NCBI GenBank assembly: GCA_964543385.1
Contig: CAZIYE010000001.1
Location: 1 to 32,000, forward strand
Source: an uncultured Candidatus Saccharibacteria bacterium
GTDB taxonomy: Bacteria; Patescibacteriota; UBA1384; XYA2-FULL-43-10; 1-14-0-10-43-13
Reading direction: 5' to 3'
Length of the DNA stretch: 32,000 nt
Part shown: positions 5,342 to 18,464 of the stretch, in pieces
Layout of the letters: each line of letters opens with the position of its first letter
Position numbering within the stretch: position 1 is the first letter of the stretch
The notes under the pieces: generated by a model
The model's database searches: none
Told to the model about the DNA's origin: nothing
The model's input: only the letters and a program-made list of their open reading frames with translations
Made by a program: the position numbers and the translations under genes

Positions 5342-5490
5342 TTATTCTAATAGAATTATTTTTAGAGTTGGAAAAAAAGTTGGGTTTCAGTTGTACTCTA
5401 AACAGAAGATAGTTATTATATTTCCCCGAAAGCAATCGGGTGAATTTTTGTGGTTAATTTAATAAATATAAATTTATATTAAGGAGAGCG

Positions 5491-8400
5491 ATGGCAACTA
5501 GTATGAAAAACGTCACTACTCGTATTTTACCTCGACAGGAAAGTCCCTTTGAAAAGTTACCAAATCTCATAGAGATTCAAACTAAATCTTATGAATGGTT
5601 TTTCAAAGAAGGCTTAAGAGAGCTTCTGGACGAAATCTCTCCGGTTGAAGATTTTACCAGCGAACTTTACTCGCTCACTTTTGGCGATTATTATCTTGAT
5701 AAACCTCGAATCGATGAAAAAACCGCTCGAGAAAAGAATCTTACTTTCAAGGCACCGCTGCGAGTTAAAGTGTCTCTTCTAAATAAACAGACAAAAGAGA
5801 TTAAAGAGGGCGAGGTTTTCCTCGGTGATTTCCCTATCATGACTCGTTGCGGAACTTTTATTATAAACGGTGTTGAGCGTTGTGTAGTTTCTCAGATAGT
5901 TAGATCATACGGTGTACTCTTTACTGCCGAAAGAATCAACGACAAAAGCTACTTTGGTGCCAAGGTCATTCCAAATAGAGGTGCATGGCTTGAGCTTGAG
6001 AGCAACTCTAAAGGCGTCATCACTGTCAAGGTTGATCGCAAAAGAAGAATCCCCGTCACTACATTTTTAAGAGCACTTGGAGTTGGTACTGATGAGCAGA
6101 TAAAGGCATTATTTACCGACGTCGATACTGAGGAACTAAAATTCATCGATGCAACTCTTGATAAAGATCCCGCCAAGAGTTACGAAGAAGGTCTTGTTGA
6201 AACATATAAGAGAATCCGTCCTGGAGATCTCGCTACACCAGAGTCAGCAAAATCTTTCATCGAGATGATGCTTTATAGTCCAAAAAGGTATGATTTAGGA
6301 CGTGTTGGCCGATACAAATTGAATCAACGTCTAGGTTTGAAGATTGAAAATACTGTTGAAAATAGAATTTTCCGCAAAGAAGACTTGGTTGAAATAATTA
6401 AAGAAATTATTCGTCTAAACAATACTCCTGGCGCCAAAGCAGATGATACCGATGCGTTGAAAAATAGAAGAATTAAGGCTGTGGGCGAATCTGTCCAAGG
6501 TCGAATTCGTGTTGGACTTCTTAGAGTAGAAAGAATCATCAAAGACAGAATGAGTGTTCTTGATCCTGTTGATATTGCCCCACAAGCCTTGGTCAATTCA
6601 AGACCAGTGGTAGCTGCTCTCCAAGAGTTTTTCTCTTCATCTCAACTTTCTCAGTTCATGAATCAGACTAATCCATTATCGGAGCTTGAGCACAAAAGAA
6701 CTCTTTCTGCGACAGGTCCAGGTGGTCTATCCAGAGAAAGAGCCGGTTTTGAAGTTCGAGACGTTCATGAATCGCACTACGGACGTATTTGTCCTATTGA
6801 ATCCCCTGAAGGTCCAAACATCGGTTTGGTAAGTTATATGGCTTCATATGCCAGAATAAATGACTACGGATTTATGGAAACACCATACCGCAAGGTTAAG
6901 ATTGAAAATGGTAAGGCAAAAGTTACTGACGATGTTGTATATCTTGATGCCGGAACTGAAGAAAAAGCTATAATTGCACCTGCTTCAGTAGAAATTGACG
7001 AGAAAGGCTATATTAAGGGAGATAGAGTTATTGTTCGTCGCTTTGGCCATCCTGATATTGAATCAGCTTCGCTTGTTGAATTTATGGATGTATCGCCAAG
7101 ACAAATTGTATCTATTGCTACTTCTCTTATTCCTTTCGTTGAGCATGATGACGGTGCTAGGGCAATGATGGGCTCGAACATGCAACGCCAAGCTGTACCA
7201 CTAATCACTCCAGATTCACCTATTGTTGGTACTGGTATGGAAAAAGCAGCAGCTCATTATTCTGGTCAGATAATTCTTGCGAAAAATAGTGGAACTGTTA
7301 GCCATGTTTCGTCAAGGTTGATCCGTGTCAAGGGCGAAAAAGGTGAGGAAGACGAATACTATCTTGAGAAATTTGCTCGTTCAAATCAAGGTACTTTAAT
7401 CAACCAACGCCCAGTTGTTAATGTTGGAGACGTTGTCAAAGCTGACGATGTTATCGCTGACTCATCTGCAACTGATAATGGTGAAATTGCATTAGGACAG
7501 AATCTGCTAGTTGCATTTATGCCATGGGGCGGCTCAAACTTTGAAGACGCTATTATTATTTCTGATCGTTTAGTAAAAGAACATACATTATCCTCCGTTC
7601 ATATTGAGCAATACTCTATCGAAGTTCGAGATACAAAGCTTGGACCTGAAGTATTAACTCGCGATATTCCAAATGTTTCCGAAGAAGCACTATCTAATCT
7701 GGATGAACTAGGAATTATAAGGATCGGCGCAGAGGTTCAATCTGGCGACATTCTCACAGGTAAGATTTCACCAAAAGGTGAAACGGAGCTTTCTAGTGAA
7801 GAGAAACTTCTTCGCGCTATCTTTGGCGAAAAAGCTAAGGATGTCCGTGACTCATCTCTAAGATTACCTCATGGTGAATACGGCAAAGTAGTGAATGTTA
7901 AGATCTTCTCAAAAGAAACTGGCGACGAATTACCTACCGGTGTATATCAAATGGTTGAAGTTTCAGTTGCTCAATTGAGAAAAATATCAGTCGGTGATAA
8001 GTTGGCTGGTCGACATGGTAACAAAGGTGTTATATCAGTTATTCTTCCACAAGAAGACATGCCCTTCATGCCGGACGGTCGTCCTGTAGACGTAGTTCTA
8101 AACCCTCTTGGCGTAATCTCACGTATGAATGTTGGTCAGATATTAGAAACACATCTTGGTCTGGCTGCTATGCATGGTGGCTACAAGATCGCAACCCCAG
8201 TATTTGAAGGAATTCAAATTGAAGAGATCAAAGAAAGATTGAAAAAAGAAGGTCTTCCAGAGGATGGTAAAATCCAGCTTATTGATGGCCGAACAGGCGA
8301 TACTTTTGATCGAAAAACTACTGTTGGAATAATGTATATTCTAAAACTTCACCATCTAGTTGATGACAAGATGCACGCCAGAAGTGTCGGTCCATACTCA

Positions 8401-8874
8401 ATGATCACTCAACAGCCTCTTGGCGGTAAAGCTCAATTTGGTGGACAGAGATTTGGTGAGATGGAAGTTTGGGCACTTGAAGCATATGGTGCCGCTCATA
8501 CACTTCAGGAAATGCTAACTATTAAATCTGATGATATTGTGGGTCGTAGCAAAATCTACGAAGCAATTATCAAGGGTGAAAAGATTCAAAAACCAGTTAT
8601 CCCAGAGGCATTTAATGTTATGGTTAAAGAGCTTCAGAGCTTATGTCTTGATGTTGATCTGATTTCTACCCAGGAAGAAGCATTGGCAATTGAAGACAAA
8701 CCAGTCGAAAAACCAGAAGAAGTAGCTGGCCCAGTTGCTCCTACCGAATACGAAGAGGTCGACGATGAAAACGAATATGATGAAGAGTTAGACGAAAAAC
8801 TAACAGAAATCGCTGCTGAGCAAACTTCCGAGGAAGATGATGTTGAGGCAGATCTGGACGAGATTAAGGAGTAA
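5491..8874 (+). CDS. rpoB: DNA-directed RNA polymerase beta subunit, with a 68-aa acidic C-terminal extension
   Basis: An AAGGAGA SD is present. Full-length RpoB motifs are seen throughout, e.g. [27 protein letters not shown] and [10 protein letters not shown]. Confidence 0.98.
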
Positions 8875-8931: not shown

Positions 8932-11900
8932 ATGGCAAATTATGAAATAAAAGATCAAGTAACAGTTTCCGATTTCGAAGCAATTCGAATCTCTGTTGCT
9001 TCTCCAGAAGATATCTTGTCTTGGTCTCATGGCGAGGTTCTAAAACCGGAAACTATTAATTATAGAACACAGAAGCCTGAACGCGATGGTTTATTCTGCG
9101 AAAAAATCTTTGGTCCCACAAAAGACTGGGAATGTTATTGTGGCAAATATAAGAAGATTCGTTATAAAGGAATTATTTGTGATAAATGTGGTGTTGAAGT
9201 GACTCGCTCGGCTGTTCGACGTGTAAGAATGGGACATATTGATCTTTCTGTCCCAGTTTCCCACATCTGGTATTCAAAAGGTTCGTCCAGCGTTGCTGCG
9301 ACAATTCTAAATTTAACTGGTGCAGATATTGAAAAGGTAGCATACTTTGCAAGCTACGTGATTCTTGAAGTTAAGGAAGACTTACAAAAACAAAGCATAG
9401 AAAGTCTTGAGAAGGAATATCAGGAGTATATTGCAGAGGTTAAGGCTGGCGCCGAAGGTACTCCTACTACAGAAATTGATCAGGTATATAAGGAAACAAG
9501 AAGCGAACTTCTATCTCTAGAAGTAGGCAAGATTATTTCAGAACAAGTTTACCGCGAACTAAACCTAAAATATGGACAGATTGTTCGTGTCGGTATCGGC
9601 GCAGAGGCAATTCTTGAGCTCTTAAAAAATGTTGATCTTGCTGCAGAAGCAGAAAAATCCAAAGAAACTTCAAAGAAACAAGCCGGACCAACTCGAGTTA
9701 AAACACTAAAAAGATTGAGAGTCTTGCAGAGCATGCTTACAGCAGGTATAAATCCTGCATGGCTTGTCCTTACAAAGCTTCCAGTTATCCCACCAGATCT
9801 ACGTCCAATGGTTCAACTTGATGGTGGTCGTTTCGCTGCTTCAGACTTGAATGATCTTTATAGAAGAGTTATAAACAGAAACAACCGTTTGAAGAGATTG
9901 CTTTCACAGGGAGCGCCAGAGGTTATTTGTCGAAATGAAAAGAGAATGCTTCAGGAAGCAGTTGATGCTTTAATTGATAATTCTGCAAGAAAAGACAAAA
10001 TAGCTTCAACTACCGGAGGCAAGAGAAAGCTCCGATCTCTTTCGGATATGCTTAGAGGCAAACAAGGACGCTTCCGACAGAATCTTCTCGGTAAACGTGT
10101 TGACTATTCTGGTCGTTCAGTAATTGTCGTTGGCCCAAAACTTAAGCTTCATCAATGTGGCTTACCAAAAGTTATGGCTATGGAATTATTCAAACCGTTT
10201 GTTATAGGCCGTCTTATCGGCGATGGTTATGTTCATAATGTTAAAAATGCAACTAGACTGATAGAAAAAGGTGAATCATTCGTTTGGGACATTCTCGAAG
10301 ATGTTATTAGGGATAAATATGTTCTTCTTAATCGTGCCCCGACTCTTCATAGACTAGGTATCCAAGCTTTTCAACCAGTTTTGATTGAAGGTAAGGCAAT
10401 TCAGATTCATCCATTAGTCTGTTCAGCTTTCAATGCAGACTTTGATGGTGATCAGATGGCTGTTCATCTTCCAATTTCTGACAATGCACAAAAAGAAGCA
10501 AGAGAAATTATGCTGTCTGCACGTAACCTTTTGAAGCCTGCTTCAGGCGATCCAGTAGTAGCTCCTTCTCAGGACATTATTCTTGGCTGTCATTATGTAA
10601 CTATGCTAGAGCCAGGGAAAAATGGGAGTGGTGCAGTATTCTCTTCTGAGAGTCAAGCTGTATCAGCCTATGATTTAGGCAGTCTTGATCTTCAAGCTCC
10701 AATAAAAATTAGACTTTCATCATCAAATGATATCGTCGAAACAACAGTTGGACGAGTTCTGTTCAATGAAATTGTGCCTGAAGGTTATGGTTTTATTAAT
10801 GAAGCTCTTAACAAAAAAGCTATTGGTAAAACAATCGATAACGTTTACAGGGCTTATGGCACAGAAGTAACTGCAAAATTTGTAGATGATATCAAAGATA
10901 TTGGTTTTAAATATGCGCAAAAGTCTGCTATGACTTTTGCTGTAGATGATATTCATATCCCAGAAACTAAGGCTGCTATAATGTCTGAATCAGAAAAGCA
11001 GGTTAAAAGCATCGACAGCCTTTTCTTTAAAGGATTAATCACAGATGATGAGCGTTACAATAAGACCATCGAGGTCTGGATGGGTGCCCAATCGCAGATG
11101 GAAAAAGACATGATGGCAGAGTTTCCAAAAGCAAACGACCTTTATATCATCATGAATTCTGGAGCAAGAGGTAATATCTCTCAGATGACACAGGTTGCTG
11201 CCATGAAAGGTATGGTTGCTGATCCTACAGGCGCTATTATCGAACTTCCAATCAGATCGAACTTTAAAGAAGGTCTTTCAGTTTTTGAATACTTTGTATC
11301 AACTCATGGTTCTAGAAAAGGTCGTGCTGACACCGCTCTTAGAACCTCGGAAGCTGGTTATCTGACCCGTCGTCTTGTAGATGTATCTCAGGATATGGTT
11401 ATTACATCGACTGACTGTGGAACAAAGGCGACTAGGACTATTTCAAAGAAATTCTATGAAGATCTCGGCGAAACTTGGGATAAATATATTCTCAGCAGAA
11501 TACTTGGCAAGGATACTCTCGGTATCAAGGCAGGTTCATTGATAGATAAAGTTGTCTTAGAAAAATTCAACCAAGCAAACCTTGCTGAAGTAGAAATTTT
11601 CTCTTTACTCGGATGTGAAGCTACTCGCGGAGTTTGCCAAAAATGTTATGGCGTAGATCTCGCTACCGGTAAGCCAGTTGAAATAGGTACTGCAGTCGGT
11701 ATTATTGCTGCTCAAGCTATTGGTGAGCCTGGTACACAGCTTACCATGAGAACCTTCCATACTGGTGGTGCTGCTGGTGAGGATATTACAGCCGGTTTGC
11801 CACGTGTTGAAGAACTTTTCGAGGCTAGAGTGCCCAAGAAGCCAGCCATACTTTCTGAGCTAGCAGGCAAGGTCGCTATCAAGAAAAACGATGATAATAC

Positions 11901-12690
11901 CGTGATATTAGTCTCCGGTAAGGGTGAAATACGTGAGGAGATATCAATTGATGCCAGCTTTAATTTCGTTGTTGAAAGCGGATCTGATGTCGTTAAAAAT
12001 CAGACAATCGCTGAATCTAGCGAAACAGGTAAAAAACCGGTAAGAGCAACATTCTCTGGTAAATTCTCTATTCTAAAAGAGAATCGAGGCCTACTTACTG
12101 GAGAAGGACAAACAGAGAAAGAATTTGTTGTTCCAAAAACCACTCAGCTGTTAGTAAAAGAGGGGGATGAGATAATCAAAGGACAAGCACTGACCGAAGG
12201 TCATTATGACCTATCCGCAAGTCTTAGATTAAATGGAACTGCAAAAACACAAAGTCATATTATCAAACAGGTTCAATCTATATATGAGTCACAAGGACAG
12301 GATATCAATGATAAACACATTGAGGTTATTGTTAAGATGATGCATAGCAAAGTCAAGATTATGGAAGCTGGTGATTCTAAATATTTACCAGGACAAGTTA
12401 TTTCCAGAATCGATGTTGCTGAGGTAAATAGATTACTGGCTGCAGAAGGCAAGAAACAAGCCAAATCGGAAGATATGATATTGGGAATCACCCGCGTAGC
12501 TTTGAAGACAGACAGTTTCTTATCAGCTGCCTCATTCCAAGAGACTACCTCAATTCTTATCGATGCTGCTATCTCAGGGAGAATCGATTATCTAAGAGGA
12601 CTAAAGGAAAATGTTATTATAGGTAAACTTATTCCTGCCGGTACAGGCTTCTATAAGGATGCCGAAGAAGAAGTCAACGAAGAAGTATAG
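8932..12690 (+). CDS. rpoC: DNA-directed RNA polymerase beta' subunit
   Basis: The zinc-binding motif CYCGKYKK...CDKCGVEV, the catalytic NADFDGDQMAVH motif and trigger-loop/bridge-helix regions are all present. Confidence 0.98.
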   Translation: MANYEIKDQVTVSDFEAIRISVASPEDILSWSHGEVLKPETINYRTQKPERDGLFCEKIFGPTKDWECYCGKYKKIRYKGIICDKCGVEVTRSAVRRVRMGHIDLSVPVSHIWYSKGSSSVAATILNLTGADIEKVAYFASYVILEVKEDLQKQSIESLEKEYQEYIAEVKAGAEGTPTTEIDQVYKETRSELLSLEVGKIISEQVYRELNLKYGQIVRVGIGAEAILELLKNVDLAAEAEKSKETSKKQAGPTRVKTLKRLRVLQSMLTAGINPAWLVLTKLPVIPPDLRPMVQLDGGRFAASDLNDLYRRVINRNNRLKRLLSQGAPEVICRNEKRMLQEAVDALIDNSARKDKIASTTGGKRKLRSLSDMLRGKQGRFRQNLLGKRVDYSGRSVIVVGPKLKLHQCGLPKVMAMELFKPFVIGRLIGDGYVHNVKNATRLIEKGESFVWDILEDVIRDKYVLLNRAPTLHRLGIQAFQPVLIEGKAIQIHPLVCSAFNADFDGDQMAVHLPISDNAQKEAREIMLSARNLLKPASGDPVVAPSQDIILGCHYVTMLEPGKNGSGAVFSSESQAVSAYDLGSLDLQAPIKIRLSSSNDIVETTVGRVLFNEIVPEGYGFINEALNKKAIGKTIDNVYRAYGTEVTAKFVDDIKDIGFKYAQKSAMTFAVDDIHIPETKAAIMSESEKQVKSIDSLFFKGLITDDERYNKTIEVWMGAQSQMEKDMMAEFPKANDLYIIMNSGARGNISQMTQVAAMKGMVADPTGAIIELPIRSNFKEGLSVFEYFVSTHGSRKGRADTALRTSEAGYLTRRLVDVSQDMVITSTDCGTKATRTISKKFYEDLGETWDKYILSRILGKDTLGIKAGSLIDKVVLEKFNQANLAEVEIFSLLGCEATRGVCQKCYGVDLATGKPVEIGTAVGIIAAQAIGEPGTQLTMRTFHTGGAAGEDITAGLPRVEELFEARVPKKPAILSELAGKVAIKKNDDNTVILVSGKGEIREEISIDASFNFVVESGSDVVKNQTIAESSETGKKPVRATFSGKFSILKENRGLLTGEGQTEKEFVVPKTTQLLVKEGDEIIKGQALTEGHYDLSASLRLNGTAKTQSHIIKQVQSIYESQGQDINDKHIEVIVKMMHSKVKIMEAGDSKYLPGQVISRIDVAEVNRLLAAEGKKQAKSEDMILGITRVALKTDSFLSAASFQETTSILIDAAISGRIDYLRGLKENVIIGKLIPAGTGFYKDAEEEVNEEV

Positions 12691-13301: not shown

Positions 13302-13778
13302 ATGCCAAGAGGAAATGCACACATTAAAAAGATCCCTATCCTTGCTGATGAGAGATTTCAGAGTATGATCATCTCAAAATTCATGAACTATATCATGTTA
13401 AATGGTAAAAAGACCGTAGCAGAGAGAATAGTTTATGGCGCTCTAGATAAAGCTGTTGAGAAGTTGGGAGGAGAGCATCTAGATGTCTTTAATCAAGCTC
13501 TCAAAAATGTTGGACCACTAGTAGAGGTTAAAAGCAAGAGAATCGGTGGTGCAAACTATCAAGTTCCTATGGAAGTAGATAAAGACAGAAAAAATACACT
13601 CGCAATGAGATGGATCATTGCAGCAGCCAGAGGCGGTAAGGGTCGCCCAATGGCAGAGAAGCTCGCAACAGAGATCGTCAACGCTTACAACGGCGAAGGT
13701 GCAGCTATCAAGAAAAAAGAAGATACGCACCGAATGGCCGAGGCAAACAAAGCTTTCGCTCACTTTGCAAGATTCTAA
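13302..13778 (+). CDS. rpsG: 30S ribosomal protein S7
   Basis: KRIGGANYQVPMEV and the C-terminal HRMAEANKAFAHFR motif are present. The position after rpsL fits. Confidence 0.98.
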   Translation: MPRGNAHIKKIPILADERFQSMIISKFMNYIMLNGKKTVAERIVYGALDKAVEKLGGEHLDVFNQALKNVGPLVEVKSKRIGGANYQVPMEVDKDRKNTLAMRWIIAAARGGKGRPMAEKLATEIVNAYNGEGAAIKKKEDTHRMAEANKAFAHFARF

Positions 13779-13802
13779 TTCAAATACAAAGCTGTATATA
13801 TT

Positions 13803-13832
13803 AAAAAATGACCTGAAACATGGTCATTTTTT
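13803..13832. terminator. Bidirectional intrinsic terminator (AAAAAATGACC-8 nt loop-GGTCATTTTTT)
   Basis: An 11-bp stem has an A-tract on one side and a T-tract on the other. It sits between the convergent rpsG (+) and the orphan gene (-). Confidence 0.7.
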
Positions 13833-13864
13833 AATAATCTATATGCAGTTGATTTTTTCGGGTT

Positions 13865-13893
13865 GCCGAATTGCGATCACATCGCAATTCGGC
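13865..13893. other. Perfect 13-bp palindrome/hairpin GCCGAATTGCGAT-CAC-ATCGCAATTCGGC
   Basis: I read this directly from the sequence. It starts 3 nt beyond the orphan gene's TGA stop and has no U-tract on either strand. Confidence 0.8.
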
Positions 13894-13896
13894 AGG

Positions 13897-14292
13897 TCAT
13901 TGGTCAGTAATCAAAACAGAGACATTCCACGATCCGGGAGTTGCCAGCTTCTTAGGCTGGTACCAGCGTTGAATTTCGCGGTACATTTTAGCAACTACTG
14001 ACTTAGCAGCATTGCGGATGGCAATAGATGGGTTGTAGTCCCATTTACTCTCTAAAACTTTGCCATCTACGCTTTCTATGCTACAGGTGTAAGAATGTAT
14101 CTGATGAGGGCCGACCGAGTCACGTACGTGACATTCGAGGAATACTTTCAAAGACCTTTCGAGAAAGGATCTTTGTAAACCAGGAGCCAATCTCGGTAGA
14201 TATGTTCGTATTGTCATATCATACCTTAACCACTCCTGATCTATTGGACGGATAGTTACTTCAATCCAAGGTATGGTTAACGGTTCAACCAT
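13897..14292 (-). CDS. Orphan hypothetical protein (131 aa from ATG 14292; 153 aa if the TTG at 14358 is used); no recognisable family
   Basis: This is the only long minus-strand ORF not overlapping a plus-strand gene. The ATG at 14290-14292 is preceded by GAGGAG with 6-nt spacing. A TGA stop is followed by two hairpins. Local GC is higher than in the flanking genes. Confidence 0.6.
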   Translation of the reverse strand: MVEPLTIPWIEVTIRPIDQEWLRYDMTIRTYLPRLAPGLQRSFLERSLKVFLECHVRDSVGPHQIHSYTCSIESVDGKVLESKWDYNPSIAIRNAAKSVVAKMYREIQRWYQPKKLATPGSWNVSVLITDQ

Positions 14293-14370
14293 AATCTTCT
14301 CCTCAAACGAGATTGTGCAGAGTTTAGCAAAGTATCTATTTAACCGCAATAGTTTCAATAGGAGATCCTG

Positions 14371-14399
14371 TTGACAGTAACTCTAAAATTAGTTATTAT
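14371..14399 (+). promoter_or_regulatory. fusA promoter TTGACA-17 nt-TATTAT
   Basis: Hexamers at 14371-14376 and 14394-14399. The leader is about 67 nt and ends in a GAGGAA SD. Confidence 0.55.
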
Positions 14400-14472
14400 T
14401 AAGCAGCAAAACGAGGGGAATTTTTTAGTTAGGAAACAAATTGGAATTAATTTAAAAGATCGAGGAATTTAA

Positions 14473-16548
14473 ATGAGTCGAGATTACCCATTAGAAAACG
14501 TGCGTAATATAGGTACTATTGCCCATATTGATGCAGGAAAAACTACTGTTACTGAAGGTATTCTATACACTTCTGGCCGTGTCCATAAAATTGGTGAAGT
14601 TCATGAGGGTGCTGCAACTATGGACTGGATGGAACAAGAGCGTGAACGTGGTATTACTATTACTTCTGCTGCCACTACTTGTTTTTGGAAAAATCATCGC
14701 ATCAATATTATTGATACACCAGGTCACGTAGACTTTACTGTTGAGGTAGAGCGCTCTTTGCGTGTCTTGGATGGTGCTGTTGTTATTTTTGATGGTAAAA
14801 TGGGTGTTGAACCACAGAGCGAGACTGTTTGGAGACAAGCAGACAACTACAAAGTTCCTCGAATGTGCTTTATTAATAAGATCAATCAAACCGGTGGTGA
14901 TTTTTATCGATCTCTTGGTTCTATTCACGCCAGATTGTCGAAAAACGCTTCTCCTATCATGATCCCTATTGGTTTTGAACAATCAATTAATGGAGTAATT
15001 GATTTGGTGCATATGAAGTCGCTTACTTATAGCGAATATAAAGATAAAGCTCTTGTGGAAGGCGAAATTCCTGCAGATATGGTAGAGAAAGCAAACGAAT
15101 GGCGAGAAAAGCTAGTTGAGAAGGTTGTGGAATATGATGATGAAGCTATGGAAAAATATTTGAACGGCGAGGCAATTTCAAATAGTGAGCTCCACATTCT
15201 AGTTCGAAAAGCATGTCTCTCTAGTCAGTTTTATCCAGTGCTTGGTGGCGATGGTCGTGGAATTATCGTTTCGAGTTTGCTTGATTCTATTGTGTCTTAT
15301 CTGCCTTCACCGATTGATATTGATCCAGCTCATGGTATAGATCCAAAAACAGAGGAAGATATCCAGGTAAAACCAATCGATAGCGAGCCATTTGCTGCTC
15401 TTGCGTTTAAGGTTGCAACCGACCCATTTGTTGGTAAACTCATTTTCTTCCGTGTTTATCGCGGTGTACTTAAAAAAGGCTCATATATTTTAAATTCTAC
15501 CTCTGGCGATAAAGAAAGAGTTGGACGTGTTGTTAGACTTCATGCAAATCATCGTGAAGAAGTAGACGAAGTTTATGCAGGTGAAATTGCCGCTGCTGTA
15601 GGTTTGTCAAACACAACCACCGGTGACACGCTTTGCGATCCCTCAAAACCTGTTATCCTTGAGAAAATTGTCTTTCCAGAACCTGTTATCGATATTGCAA
15701 TTGAGCCAAAGACAAAAGCTGATCAGGAAAAAATGGGCATTGCTCTTCAAAGACTTGCTGAAGAAGACCCAACATTCCGAGTCCATAGCGACGAAGAAAC
15801 TGGCCAGACAATTATTGCCGGTATGGGTGAGCTTCATCTAGAAATTATCGTGGATAGGATGAAGAGAGAATTCAAGGTAGAAGCAAATGTTGGTGCTCCT
15901 CAAGTTGCTTACCGCGAAACAATCAAATCAGAAGTTGCATCTGAGGGTAAGTACATCAGACAGACTGGTGGTCGTGGTCAATATGGTCATTGCTTGCTTA
16001 GGATTAAACCAAGTGAACAGGGCCAGGGATTTGTATTTATTAACTCTATTGTTGGTGGTTCTATTCCAAGAGAATATATAAAGCCTATTGAAGAAGGTAT
16101 CAAAGAAGCAATGGCCAGAGGTGTCATCGCTAGTTATCCCGTAGTAGATGTCTCTGTTGAGGTTTATGACGGATCATTTCATGAAGTTGACTCTTCCGAA
16201 ATGGCTTTCAAAATTGCTGGCTCAATGGCTTTTCAAGATGGTTTCAAAAAGGCTAATCCTGTTATTCTAGAGCCTATTATGAAGGTAGAGGTTACAACGC
16301 CAGAAGATTTTATGGGTGATGTTATCGGCGATCTTAACTCGAAACGTGGCCAAATTAATAAGATGGAAGATTTGCCAAGTGGAATTAAGCTAATTAGTGC
16401 CTTCGTTCCTCTTGGATCAATGTTTGGCTATACAACAAGCTTGAGATCAATGTCCCAAGGACGAGCTGCATCTTCAATGGAGTTCGCTCACTATGCAGAA
16501 GTCCCAGGCAATGTAACCAAAGAGATTATTGAAAAGAGAAGCAAATAA
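14473..16548 (+). CDS. fusA: Elongation factor G
   Basis: [17 protein letters not shown] and NKIN G-motifs are present, along with full EF-G domains II-V. Confidence 0.98.
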
Positions 16549-18235: not shown

Positions 18236-18240
18236 CTATA

Positions 18241-18298
18241 GTTCAGAGTCAGGAGCTAAGAAACCAGAGGATTATCCTCGGATCTCTTAGCTCTGAAC
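18241..18298 (+). other. 58-nt imperfect hairpin at the start of the rpsJ-rplC spacer
   Basis: GTTCAG[AGTCAGG]AGCTAAG pairs with CTTAGCTCTGAAC. An inner CC/GG stem and a GAGGA-TTA-TCCTC stem-loop lie inside. There is no trailing U-tract. Confidence 0.6.
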
Positions 18299-18315
18299 AC
18301 TCAACTATTGAGACG

Positions 18316-18344
18316 TTGACTTTTCGAGTCAAATGTAGTAAATT
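18316..18344 (+). promoter_or_regulatory. Candidate rplC-cluster promoter TTGACT-17 nt-TAAATT
   Basis: Hexamers at 18316-18321 and 18339-18344. The -35 is part of a small TTGACT/AGTCAA hairpin. Confidence 0.4.
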
Positions 18345-18464
18345 TATACTGTTGTTTGAATAAAACTCAGTAAACAAGTCATGGATATCGTCTCGGCTGC
18401 TTGATCAGACGGATGGATCTACGACCATTATAGTTTTGTAGCAATTTGTAATTATAAATATCAC

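Follow-up and report, generated by a model that had tools for sequence, protein, structure and literature searches.

A likely cargo slot between rpsG and fusA of a Berkelbacteria-like bacterium, and the probable strain-specific gene that it holds

In a 32,000-nucleotide (nt) stretch of contig CAZIYE010000001.1 from an uncultured bacterium (the whole stretch is referred to below as the window), the ribosomal protein gene rpsG and the elongation factor gene fusA are 694 nt apart, and the gap carries a lone minus-strand open reading frame (ORF), here called the orphan ORF or orphan gene. Comparison with the same locus in relatives makes it very likely that this gap is a slot for changing cargo. 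The orphan ORF is best read, although with less assurance, as a genuine, recently acquired, strain-specific accessory gene lodged in a hypervariable slot between a terminator and a promoter.

In Escherichia coli, the str operon rpsL-rpsG-fusA-tufA gives one transcript and is controlled by translational feedback through S7. The order rpsL-rpsG-fusA-tuf is retained in the window as in E. coli, but the window and its relatives possess a terminator after rpsG and a separate promoter and leader for fusA, so that two units result. The left flank of the slot is rpsG (13302 to 13778, plus strand; 158-amino-acid [aa] ORF), which encodes ribosomal protein S7 and whose identical product on record carries the Pfam domain Ribosomal_S7. 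The right flank is fusA (14473 to 16548, plus strand; 691-aa ORF), which encodes elongation factor G (EF-G) and whose orthologues in relatives have EF-G Pfam domains on record. We could confirm the layout described in the original prediction, with rpsG ending at 13778, fusA starting at 14473, and the minus-strand ORF lying in between.

Relatives carry unrelated cargo between rpsG and fusA

The rpsG-fusA locus was retrieved from 11 further lineages, and the loci were ranked by the identity of their S7 to that of the window. The window S7 was closest to that of Candidatus Berkelbacteria metagenome-assembled genomes (MAGs), the nearest GTDB species representative being 77% identical; closer S7 relatives (80 to 91%) were found in metagenome assemblies, the Berkelbacteria-like range being 74 to 91%. 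The slot was occupied in 11 of 12 Berkelbacteria-like lineages by cargo that is mutually unrelated and that ranges from 99 aa to more than 5 kb. No similarity among the cargo of different genomes, or between that cargo and the window ORF, was detected by all-against-all BLASTP, and tblastn of the relatives' cargo against the window gap gave no alignment. An orthologue of the orphan ORF was absent from the rpsG-fusA locus of every relative compared.

The closest relatives by S7 already differ in content. L082/L083 (S7 91%) has a gap of 617 nt with a plus-strand 99-aa ORF, and L084 (90%) has a gap of 886 nt with a plus-strand ORF for a 193-aa membrane-anchored protein. L090 (88%) carries a plus-strand NMO-like gene of 484 aa and a gene of 2088 aa, with fusA not reached. 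In L091 (85%), we observed an empty site: its gap of 188 nt contains no ORF and consists of terminator, promoter and leader only. Further down the ranking, at least six ORFs without Pfam matches extend over more than 5 kb in L092/L093 (80%), a plus-strand 195-aa ORF is followed by the contig end in L002 (77%), and 5.7 kb in L097 (77%) hold six ORFs (PEBP, peptidase U32 and four unknown). The slot of L094 (76%) measures 1.1 kb and has a minus-strand 225-aa lipoprotein-like ORF; that of L095 (76%) measures 2.5 kb and encodes two paralogous anchored proteins of 237 and 435 aa, both on the plus strand; and that of L096 (74%) measures 4.6 kb, in which an rve transposase is accompanied by GNAT, NTP-transferase and an 84-aa ORF. 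Finally, the more distant L005 (59%) shows minus-strand ORFs of 213 and 109 aa in 1.4 kb.

We then placed this variability in a wider frame using 80 species-representative loci from many phyla. The median rpsG-fusA gap was 33.5 nt, and the gap did not exceed 300 nt in 61 of the 66 loci in which fusA follows rpsG. In Gemmatimonadaceae representatives (L012, L023, L025, L032, L065 and others), unrelated genes extending over more than 3.5 kb stand between rpsG and fusA, indicating that the adjacency is broken in at least one other phylum. The notion that the rpsG-fusA string is inviolate thus has to be given up, given the unrelated cargo of the Berkelbacteria-like lineages and the kilobase gaps of the Gemmatimonadaceae. 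The gene between rpsG and fusA in L065 is an alpha/beta-hydrolase-like gene of 673 aa on the opposite strand.

Several side observations were made on the relatives. The two cargo genes of L095 (6595 to 7308 and 7403 to 8710) are paralogues with 33% identity (E value of 1e-28), both with an N-terminal membrane anchor, and the longer one (7403 to 8710) contains an internal duplication. Several cargo proteins of L084, L092, L094 and L097 also look secreted or membrane anchored. Elsewhere in the ribosomal-protein cluster, L094 has a 134-aa ORF without Pfam matches (11538 to 11942) between rpsJ (S10) and rplC (L3), while the same junction in the window (18236 to 18464) is an ORF-free gap of 229 nt; the rpsJ-rplC junction may be a second, smaller variable slot. 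One locus, L063 (JADZEW010000026.1), belongs to a MAG labelled as a Methanoregulaceae archaeon and encodes a bacterial-type S7 with 57% identity to that of the window; this contig is probably mis-binned.

The terminator-promoter frame is older than the insert

A comparison of rpsG-fusA synteny in related genomes had been proposed as a check on the orphan gene, and its outcome was twofold: the gene is absent from the relatives, but the slot and the split exist without it. The conserved spacer, the terminator hairpin and the T-run after the rpsG stop codon were found in the window, L082, L084 and L091, and a hairpin plus T-run occupies this position in every relative. On the other side, GTTGACA-17-T(T)ATTAT followed by GAGGGGAATTTTTT lies upstream of fusA in the same four loci. 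Similarity between genomes ends at about 13800 on the left and restarts at about 14386 to 14392 on the right. Since terminator, promoter and leader are common to relatives with other cargo and to the empty site of L091, the split of the operon predates the window insert. This comparison shows the str cluster of the Berkelbacteria-like clade as two predicted transcription units, rpsL-rpsG and fusA-tuf. The claim that the orphan gene splits the operon was not borne out, since the terminator, the promoter and the leader motif GAGGGGAATTTTTTAG are also present in relatives with other cargo and in L091. By contrast, the description of an insulated cassette was upheld, with a terminator-shaped hairpin on one side and the fusA promoter on the other.

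On the rpsG side, a short conserved spacer, TTCAAATACAAAGCTGTATA (13779 to 13798, plus strand), resembles the sequence after rpsG in L082 and L084, and the 24 nt at 13777 to 13800 are 100% identical to L084 6190 to 6213. It is followed by a bidirectional, intrinsic-terminator-like hairpin (13799 to 13836, both strands) that would be common to rpsG on the plus strand and to the orphan gene on the minus strand. Its perfect 15-bp arms, TATTAAAAAATGACC (13799 to 13813) and GGTCATTTTTTAATA (13822 to 13836), enclose an 8-nt loop and are flanked by A6 and T6; the core stem ATGACC/GGTCAT is lengthened by A:U pairs, and T6 follows on the plus strand, whereas A6 is read as U6 on the minus strand. As judged from sequence, the element thus has the stable hairpin and the subsequent U-run on the transcribed strand that define an intrinsic terminator. 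A consensus terminator scan did not list it. The hairpin region folded far better than shuffled sequences did (z scores: minus strand, -6.5; plus strand, -9.4). A second, perfect 14-bp palindrome, TGCCGAATTGCGAT-CAC-ATCGCAATTCGGCA (13864 to 13894, both strands), adjoins the stop codon of the orphan ORF and has a U-tract 3' of it on neither strand. We considered this palindrome as a repeat or mobile element and rejected the idea, as it occurs once in the window and JGI metagenome contigs contain no exact copy of it.

On the fusA side, the fusA-tuf promoter TTGACA-17-TATTAT (14371 to 14399, plus strand) matches 11 of 12 consensus positions, and both its -35 and -10 boxes are kept in L082, L084 and the empty-site L091. 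The leader motif GAGGGGAATTTTTTAG (14413 to 14428, plus strand) is shared with relatives. Its core, GAGGGGAATTTTTT(AG), lies about 14 nt downstream of the -10 box; the window, L082 (about 6035 to 6049), L084 (6302 to 6319) and L091 (5611 to 5624) share an identical GAGGGGAATTTTTT, which is degenerate in L094 and L095. The fusA leader of the window, L082, L084 and L091 is A rich and ends in a Shine-Dalgarno (SD) sequence of the CAAGGAA or CGAGGAA type. The leader motif might serve the fusA-tuf unit as a binding site for a regulator or as a start-site element. Structure prediction gave no conserved fold for the leader RNA, and an Rfam search of the whole window returned nothing at the gathering thresholds. 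On these two grounds, a non-coding RNA in the gap was rejected. At 14319 to 14333, 15 nt repeat the 3' end of rpsG in inverted orientation (80% complementary to 13762 to 13776); since the similarity stops there and many pairs of this kind were listed along with it, this was also dismissed as a chance match.

Traces of turnover in the slots of relatives

One trace was found in L084, where the cargo is bracketed by a 62-nt direct repeat (5473 to 5534 and 6186 to 6247) with 92% identity between the copies. The repeat comprises the very end of rpsG together with the terminator, and the stem differences between its copies are compensatory. It looks like the footprint of an insertion or recombination mechanism. 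In L090 (903 to 963), GCAAGATTCTAA, the 12 nt with which rpsG ends, occurs again 25 nt downstream of the stop codon, and in L096 (6470 to 6510) ATTCTAA is repeated after the rpsG stop. L094 (6478 to 6530) has a 51-nt G/C-rich hairpin element after the rpsG stop that resembles the motif GGGGGAGTTAGAGGGGGTG in an intergenic region of L092 (6138 to 6363). Moreover, the transposase in the L096 slot is of the insertion sequence (IS) type (rve). The window showed none of these traces.

Coding evidence for the orphan ORF

The orphan ORF can be read on the minus strand from an ATG at 14292 as a 131-aa product (13897 to 14292) or from a TTG at 14358 as a 153-aa product (13897 to 14358), both ending in TGA. 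These two starts and the SD sequence GAGGAG (14299 to 14304, minus strand), 6 nt upstream of the ATG, were as originally described. Among the 33 starts inspected in the window, GAGGAG-6 nt-ATG ranks with the strongest. The ATG was preferred to the TTG, since the TTG has nothing better than a poor AGGA 10 nt upstream, its extension would run over the candidate minus-strand promoter up to the -35 box of fusA, and NCBI and Logan sources list the product (P0001) with 131 aa. This candidate promoter, TTGAAA-16-GATACT (14331 to 14358, minus strand), matches 9 of 12 consensus positions; its location within the TTG-extended frame favours the ATG start. Its -35 box (14353 to 14358, minus strand) stands back to back with that of fusA (14371 to 14376, plus strand).

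As had been claimed, the orphan ORF is the only credible minus-strand gene, since no other sizeable minus-strand ORF lies outside the plus-strand genes anywhere in the window. The only other ORF of any length in the gap is one of 75 aa on the plus strand, opposite the orphan ORF and overlapping with it. We considered whether the orphan ORF could be the shadow of a decayed plus-strand gene and rejected this, given the lack of tblastn alignments between the relatives' cargo and the gap and the lack of a Pfam match for the 75-aa ORF. The predicted product is a soluble, basic small protein (isoelectric point [pI] of 8.95) without transmembrane or hydrophobic segments. It does contain the C-H-x7-H-x2-H-x3-C cluster of Cys and His residues noted earlier.

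Two lines of evidence argue that the ORF is more than a chance opening. In Markov-1 random sequences of 694 nt and the same composition, an ATG-initiated ORF of at least 131 codons occurred in 0.1 to 0.3% of cases (p of about 0.001 to 0.003), the median longest ORF being about 58 to 60 codons. In addition, an AlphaFold2 (AF2) model predicted from the single sequence reached a mean predicted local distance difference test (pLDDT) value of 69.5 and a predicted template modelling (pTM) score of 0.62, with a five-stranded antiparallel sheet, a 23-residue helix (residues 88 to 110) and a final strand. A 139-aa antisense shadow ORF in fusA, used as a control, gave a pLDDT of 36.0, a pTM of 0.22 and 0 residues above 50.

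The composition of the gene differs from that of its neighbours, in line with what had been proposed. The hand counts of G+C, 69/150 at 13897 to 14046 against 55/150 at the start of rpsL, were exact; the TGA stop codon recurs in only 1 of the 32 other window genes; and the G+C content at third codon positions (GC3) of 0.41 is the maximum of the window, the 32 other genes having 0.23 to 0.39. We read this high GC3 as a sign of foreign origin. The gene is carried on a 671-kb contig. The gap DNA (13779 to 14472) was also recovered with 100% identity in three independently assembled Logan contigs (L087 3343 to 4036, L088 894 to 1587 and L089 815 to 1508; runs SRR12261223, SRR12261224 and SRR12261226). 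Being identical, these contigs are uninformative for the population ratio of nonsynonymous to synonymous polymorphism (pN/pS).

Several results weigh against a genuine, recently acquired gene, and the sub-threshold profile and structural matches given in the next section have to be counted with them. The codon-usage log-odds score of the orphan ORF was 0.00 bits per codon, compared to 0.087 to 0.48 in 32 window genes; antisense shadow ORFs scored between -0.51 and 0.125, which includes this value. This comparison loses some of its force because the reference set consists almost wholly of translation genes with high expression, against which a foreign gene is expected to score low. The extreme GC3 can equally be held against the reality of the gene. 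The 131-aa ORF was called in only one of the three identical Logan contigs, indicating that it is marginal and unstable for automatic gene callers. The region contains 11 promoter-like matches compared to 10.8 in shuffled sequences, so that the candidate minus-strand promoter taken by itself lacks significance, and the AF2 comparison was made with a single control ORF. Finally, the window has no integrase, no transposase and no significant flanking direct repeat, so that the mechanism of insertion has to be derived from the relatives.

Several of these results would fit a spurious or dead ORF, the insert of about 530 nt being a relic of slot traffic or a fragment of a longer foreign gene that yields no functional protein. 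The strict singleton status in every database searched, the codon score below that of all other window genes, the calling in one of three contigs and the weak evidence for a minus-strand promoter all fit such a relic, and the slot indeed turns over fast, with duplicated rpsG ends and small hairpin inserts left behind as debris. However, the length of the ORF is improbable by chance, its SD sequence is strong and ideally spaced, its AF2 confidence is far above that of the non-coding control, and a compact terminator arrangement follows directly after its stop codon. Moreover, a relic that has kept SD sequence, ATG and an intact frame would need to be very young. We therefore regard a spurious or dead ORF as rather unlikely, though well worth keeping in mind. 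The orphan ORF is probably a real gene that is unique to the strain, and the odds that it is functional are, in our judgement, reasonably good.

Homology searches and predicted fold

The orphan protein was searched for in very large collections. A word-indexed search of 5.8 billion clusters and an exhaustive phmmer search of 1.84 billion representatives at 50% identity returned the protein itself or nothing. No homologue was found among PDB sequences, and NCBIfam, PADLOC and PHROG profiles gave no match. Likewise, tblastn-type scans of metagenome and viral contigs, as well as tblastn against phage and plasmid records, revealed none beyond the protein itself. The orphan protein is a singleton even among 15 billion proteins, which agrees with the earlier suggestion of a lineage-specific factor. 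The proposed family and structure check by profiles, AF2 and Foldseek likewise ended without a confident match to a known family.

The sole Pfam match was the double-stranded RNA-binding domain (dsRBD) profile dsrm (PF00035), below threshold: the whole 153-aa form gave an E value of 0.095 (13.7 bits) and the C-terminal 69 aa gave 0.047 (14.7 bits), against a gathering cut-off of 23 bits. The match spans profile positions 19/21 to 65 of 66, which correspond to beta1-beta2-beta3-alpha2, with alpha1 absent. Foldseek comparison of the AF2 model with the PDB produced nothing significant (best E value of 0.4), and all matches in BFVD were non-significant as well (E values of at least 0.049). Nevertheless, dsRBD proteins were heavily enriched among the top PDB matches, including Loqs-PB, TARBP2, Drosha, Rnt1p, ADAR2 and DHX9. 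The dsRBD matches had target-normalised TM-scores of 0.42 to 0.47 at E values of at least 0.4, and the Drosha dsRBD was matched, non-significantly, with a probability of 0.90 and a root mean square deviation of 3.3 Å over 51 columns. The non-significant matches in a viral structure library included a few RNase III and dsRBM entries, and other weak, non-significant Foldseek matches were to the T7 Gp1.2 dGTPase inhibitor and to RNase H-like folds.

Over the matched stretch, the AF2 model has three strands and a long helix, as in a dsRBD. Upstream of this beta-beta-beta-alpha unit, however, it places strands instead of a helix, so that about 50 residues of extra beta-hairpins stand where a dsRBD has alpha1, and the protein does not show the complete dsRBD topology. 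The dsRBD contacts RNA through a GPxH loop and a KKxAK motif at the start of alpha2. By eye, the orphan loop ...SVGPHQIH... contains G-P-H, one residue short of GPxH, the helix begins A-I-R-N-A-A-K, and NPSIAIRNAAKSVVAK contains the AxxxAAK part only. Although both resemble the dsRBD motifs, the lysine pair of KKxAK is missing, the orphan protein reading P-S-I-A-I-R, and the RNA-contact motifs are thus not those of a dsRBD. By profile score, topology and RNA-contact motifs, the orphan protein is not a member of the dsRBD family. The likeness of its C-terminal half to a dsRBD weakly suggests a lead and does not provide a classification; that the protein has a dsRBD-like core is a tentative idea to which we give somewhat less than even weight.

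Given its position, the orphan gene might be a translation-linked factor or regulator, that is, a dsRBD-like RNA binder, divergent from fusA, that targets the ribosome, rRNA or tRNA or influences how fusA-tuf is expressed. Such a role would suit the site between translation genes with its back-to-back -35 boxes, the basic character of the protein, the weak dsRBD-like signal and the conserved leader motif nearby. However, relatives with 74 to 91% identical S7 carry unrelated cargo or none, and no homologue exists anywhere in the collections searched. The fusA promoter and leader are kept where the orphan gene is missing and thus do not depend on it. The absent RNA-contact lysines and the foreign composition also speak against this role. 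A ribosome- or translation-associated role, one of those left open in the original prediction, loses its footing, since nothing homologous is conserved at the locus. We consider a link of the orphan gene to translation very improbable indeed, and a dedicated translation factor or regulator hardly credible. The orphan gene is probably accessory cargo rather than a core translation factor or a new part of the translation machinery.

Defence and toxin-antitoxin genes are often found in variable islets between core genes. The orphan gene could accordingly belong to a conflict system, either as a solitary toxin or antitoxin of the HicA/HicB structural class, which is dsRBD-like, or as a single-gene anti-phage or anti-defence factor. 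This general tendency of islets, the beta-beta-beta-alpha-beta topology of the AF2 model with its His-containing loop, the weak matches to Gp1.2 and RNase H-like folds, and the transposase in one relative's slot are all compatible with it. In contrast, the protein matches nothing in PADLOC, PHROG, Pfam (at threshold) or NCBIfam, its structural matches are non-significant, and the gap lacks a partner gene. PADLOC defence models also gave no match to the four cargo proteins searched from the window, L002 and L005. A conflict-system gene of these kinds is, in our view, quite improbable.

A bolder version would make the orphan protein the founding and so far sole member of a new small-protein family, in which a degenerate dsRBD-like core combined with an N-terminal beta-sheet binds a component of the ribosome or of translation, or else structured RNA. 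The strain would thereby gain a phenotype of its own, such as phage or host interaction or modulation of fusA-tuf, and the gap would be a dedicated landing pad for new, perhaps de novo, genes in bacteria of the candidate phyla radiation (CPR). We hold this to be unlikely.

Discussion

How a foreign gene could come to rest and persist in this slot can be outlined as follows. An insertion between terminator and promoter would disturb neither essential unit and would thus be tolerated. The near-invariant rpsG, fusA and tuf genes could act as homology arms, allowing diverged strains to swap the DNA in between, while the duplicated rpsG 3' ends and terminator seen in relatives suggest homology-facilitated illegitimate recombination with occasional IS activity. 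In the window, the cargo would be a single gene transcribed divergently from the fusA promoter region, read from the weak candidate promoter, translated from the strong SD sequence and ended at hairpins common with rpsG. Its product would be a small, soluble, basic protein of beta-sheet plus helix, the C-terminal half of which may resemble the beta-beta-beta-alpha core of a dsRBD. The activity that seems most likely is the binding of a structured nucleic acid or of a protein partner, which would serve a strain-specific role, for instance in conflict or interaction.

Hotspots of horizontal gene transfer in bacterial pangenomes, in which accessory genes are flanked by core genes, were reportedly described by Oliveira and colleagues in 2017. 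The rpsG-fusA slot resembles such hotspots and islets: its flanks are conserved while the content between them differs among relatives, one site, that of L091 with an 85% identical S7, is empty, the window cargo has an atypical composition, and the cargo consists mostly of ORFans with an occasional mobile-element gene such as the rve gene of L096. The slot differs from them in lying inside the normally contiguous str cluster, exactly between a terminator and a promoter, in the absence of integrase, tRNA and att-type repeat from the window, and in its host, a CPR bacterium with a very small genome. Of the features that characterise an islet, differing content between the same flanks, an empty site and deviant composition were thus all found, and a mobility signature was lacking in the window. 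Literature searches brought up neither an account of the rpsG-fusA locus as a hotspot nor one of the orphan protein.

CPR genomes are rich in orphan genes, and islets of variable content between core genes are known as well. Like other ORFans of CPR bacteria (Patescibacteria), the orphan gene is small, unannotated and without homologue, in a genome with a Berkelbacteria-like S7; unlike many of them, it has a confident single-sequence fold prediction. It is a further case of known kinds, a CPR ORFan and a core-gene islet, in an unusual place.

The comparison with relatives removes most of the surprise of a gene that seemed to break a sacrosanct operon. It also teaches that, when a lone gene is met in a famous operon, close relatives should be compared before a functional link to its neighbours is read into the position. 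The interest that is left lies in the safe-harbour architecture and the fast turnover of the slot, and in a singleton protein with a defined predicted fold. The rpsG-fusA boundary offers a handy natural marker of strain-level gene flow in tiny, recombination-poor genomes, and the slot could be used as a safe-harbour site if Berkelbacteria-like organisms become genetically tractable. If the orphan gene is expressed, it would provide a tractable case for how brand-new proteins arise or spread.

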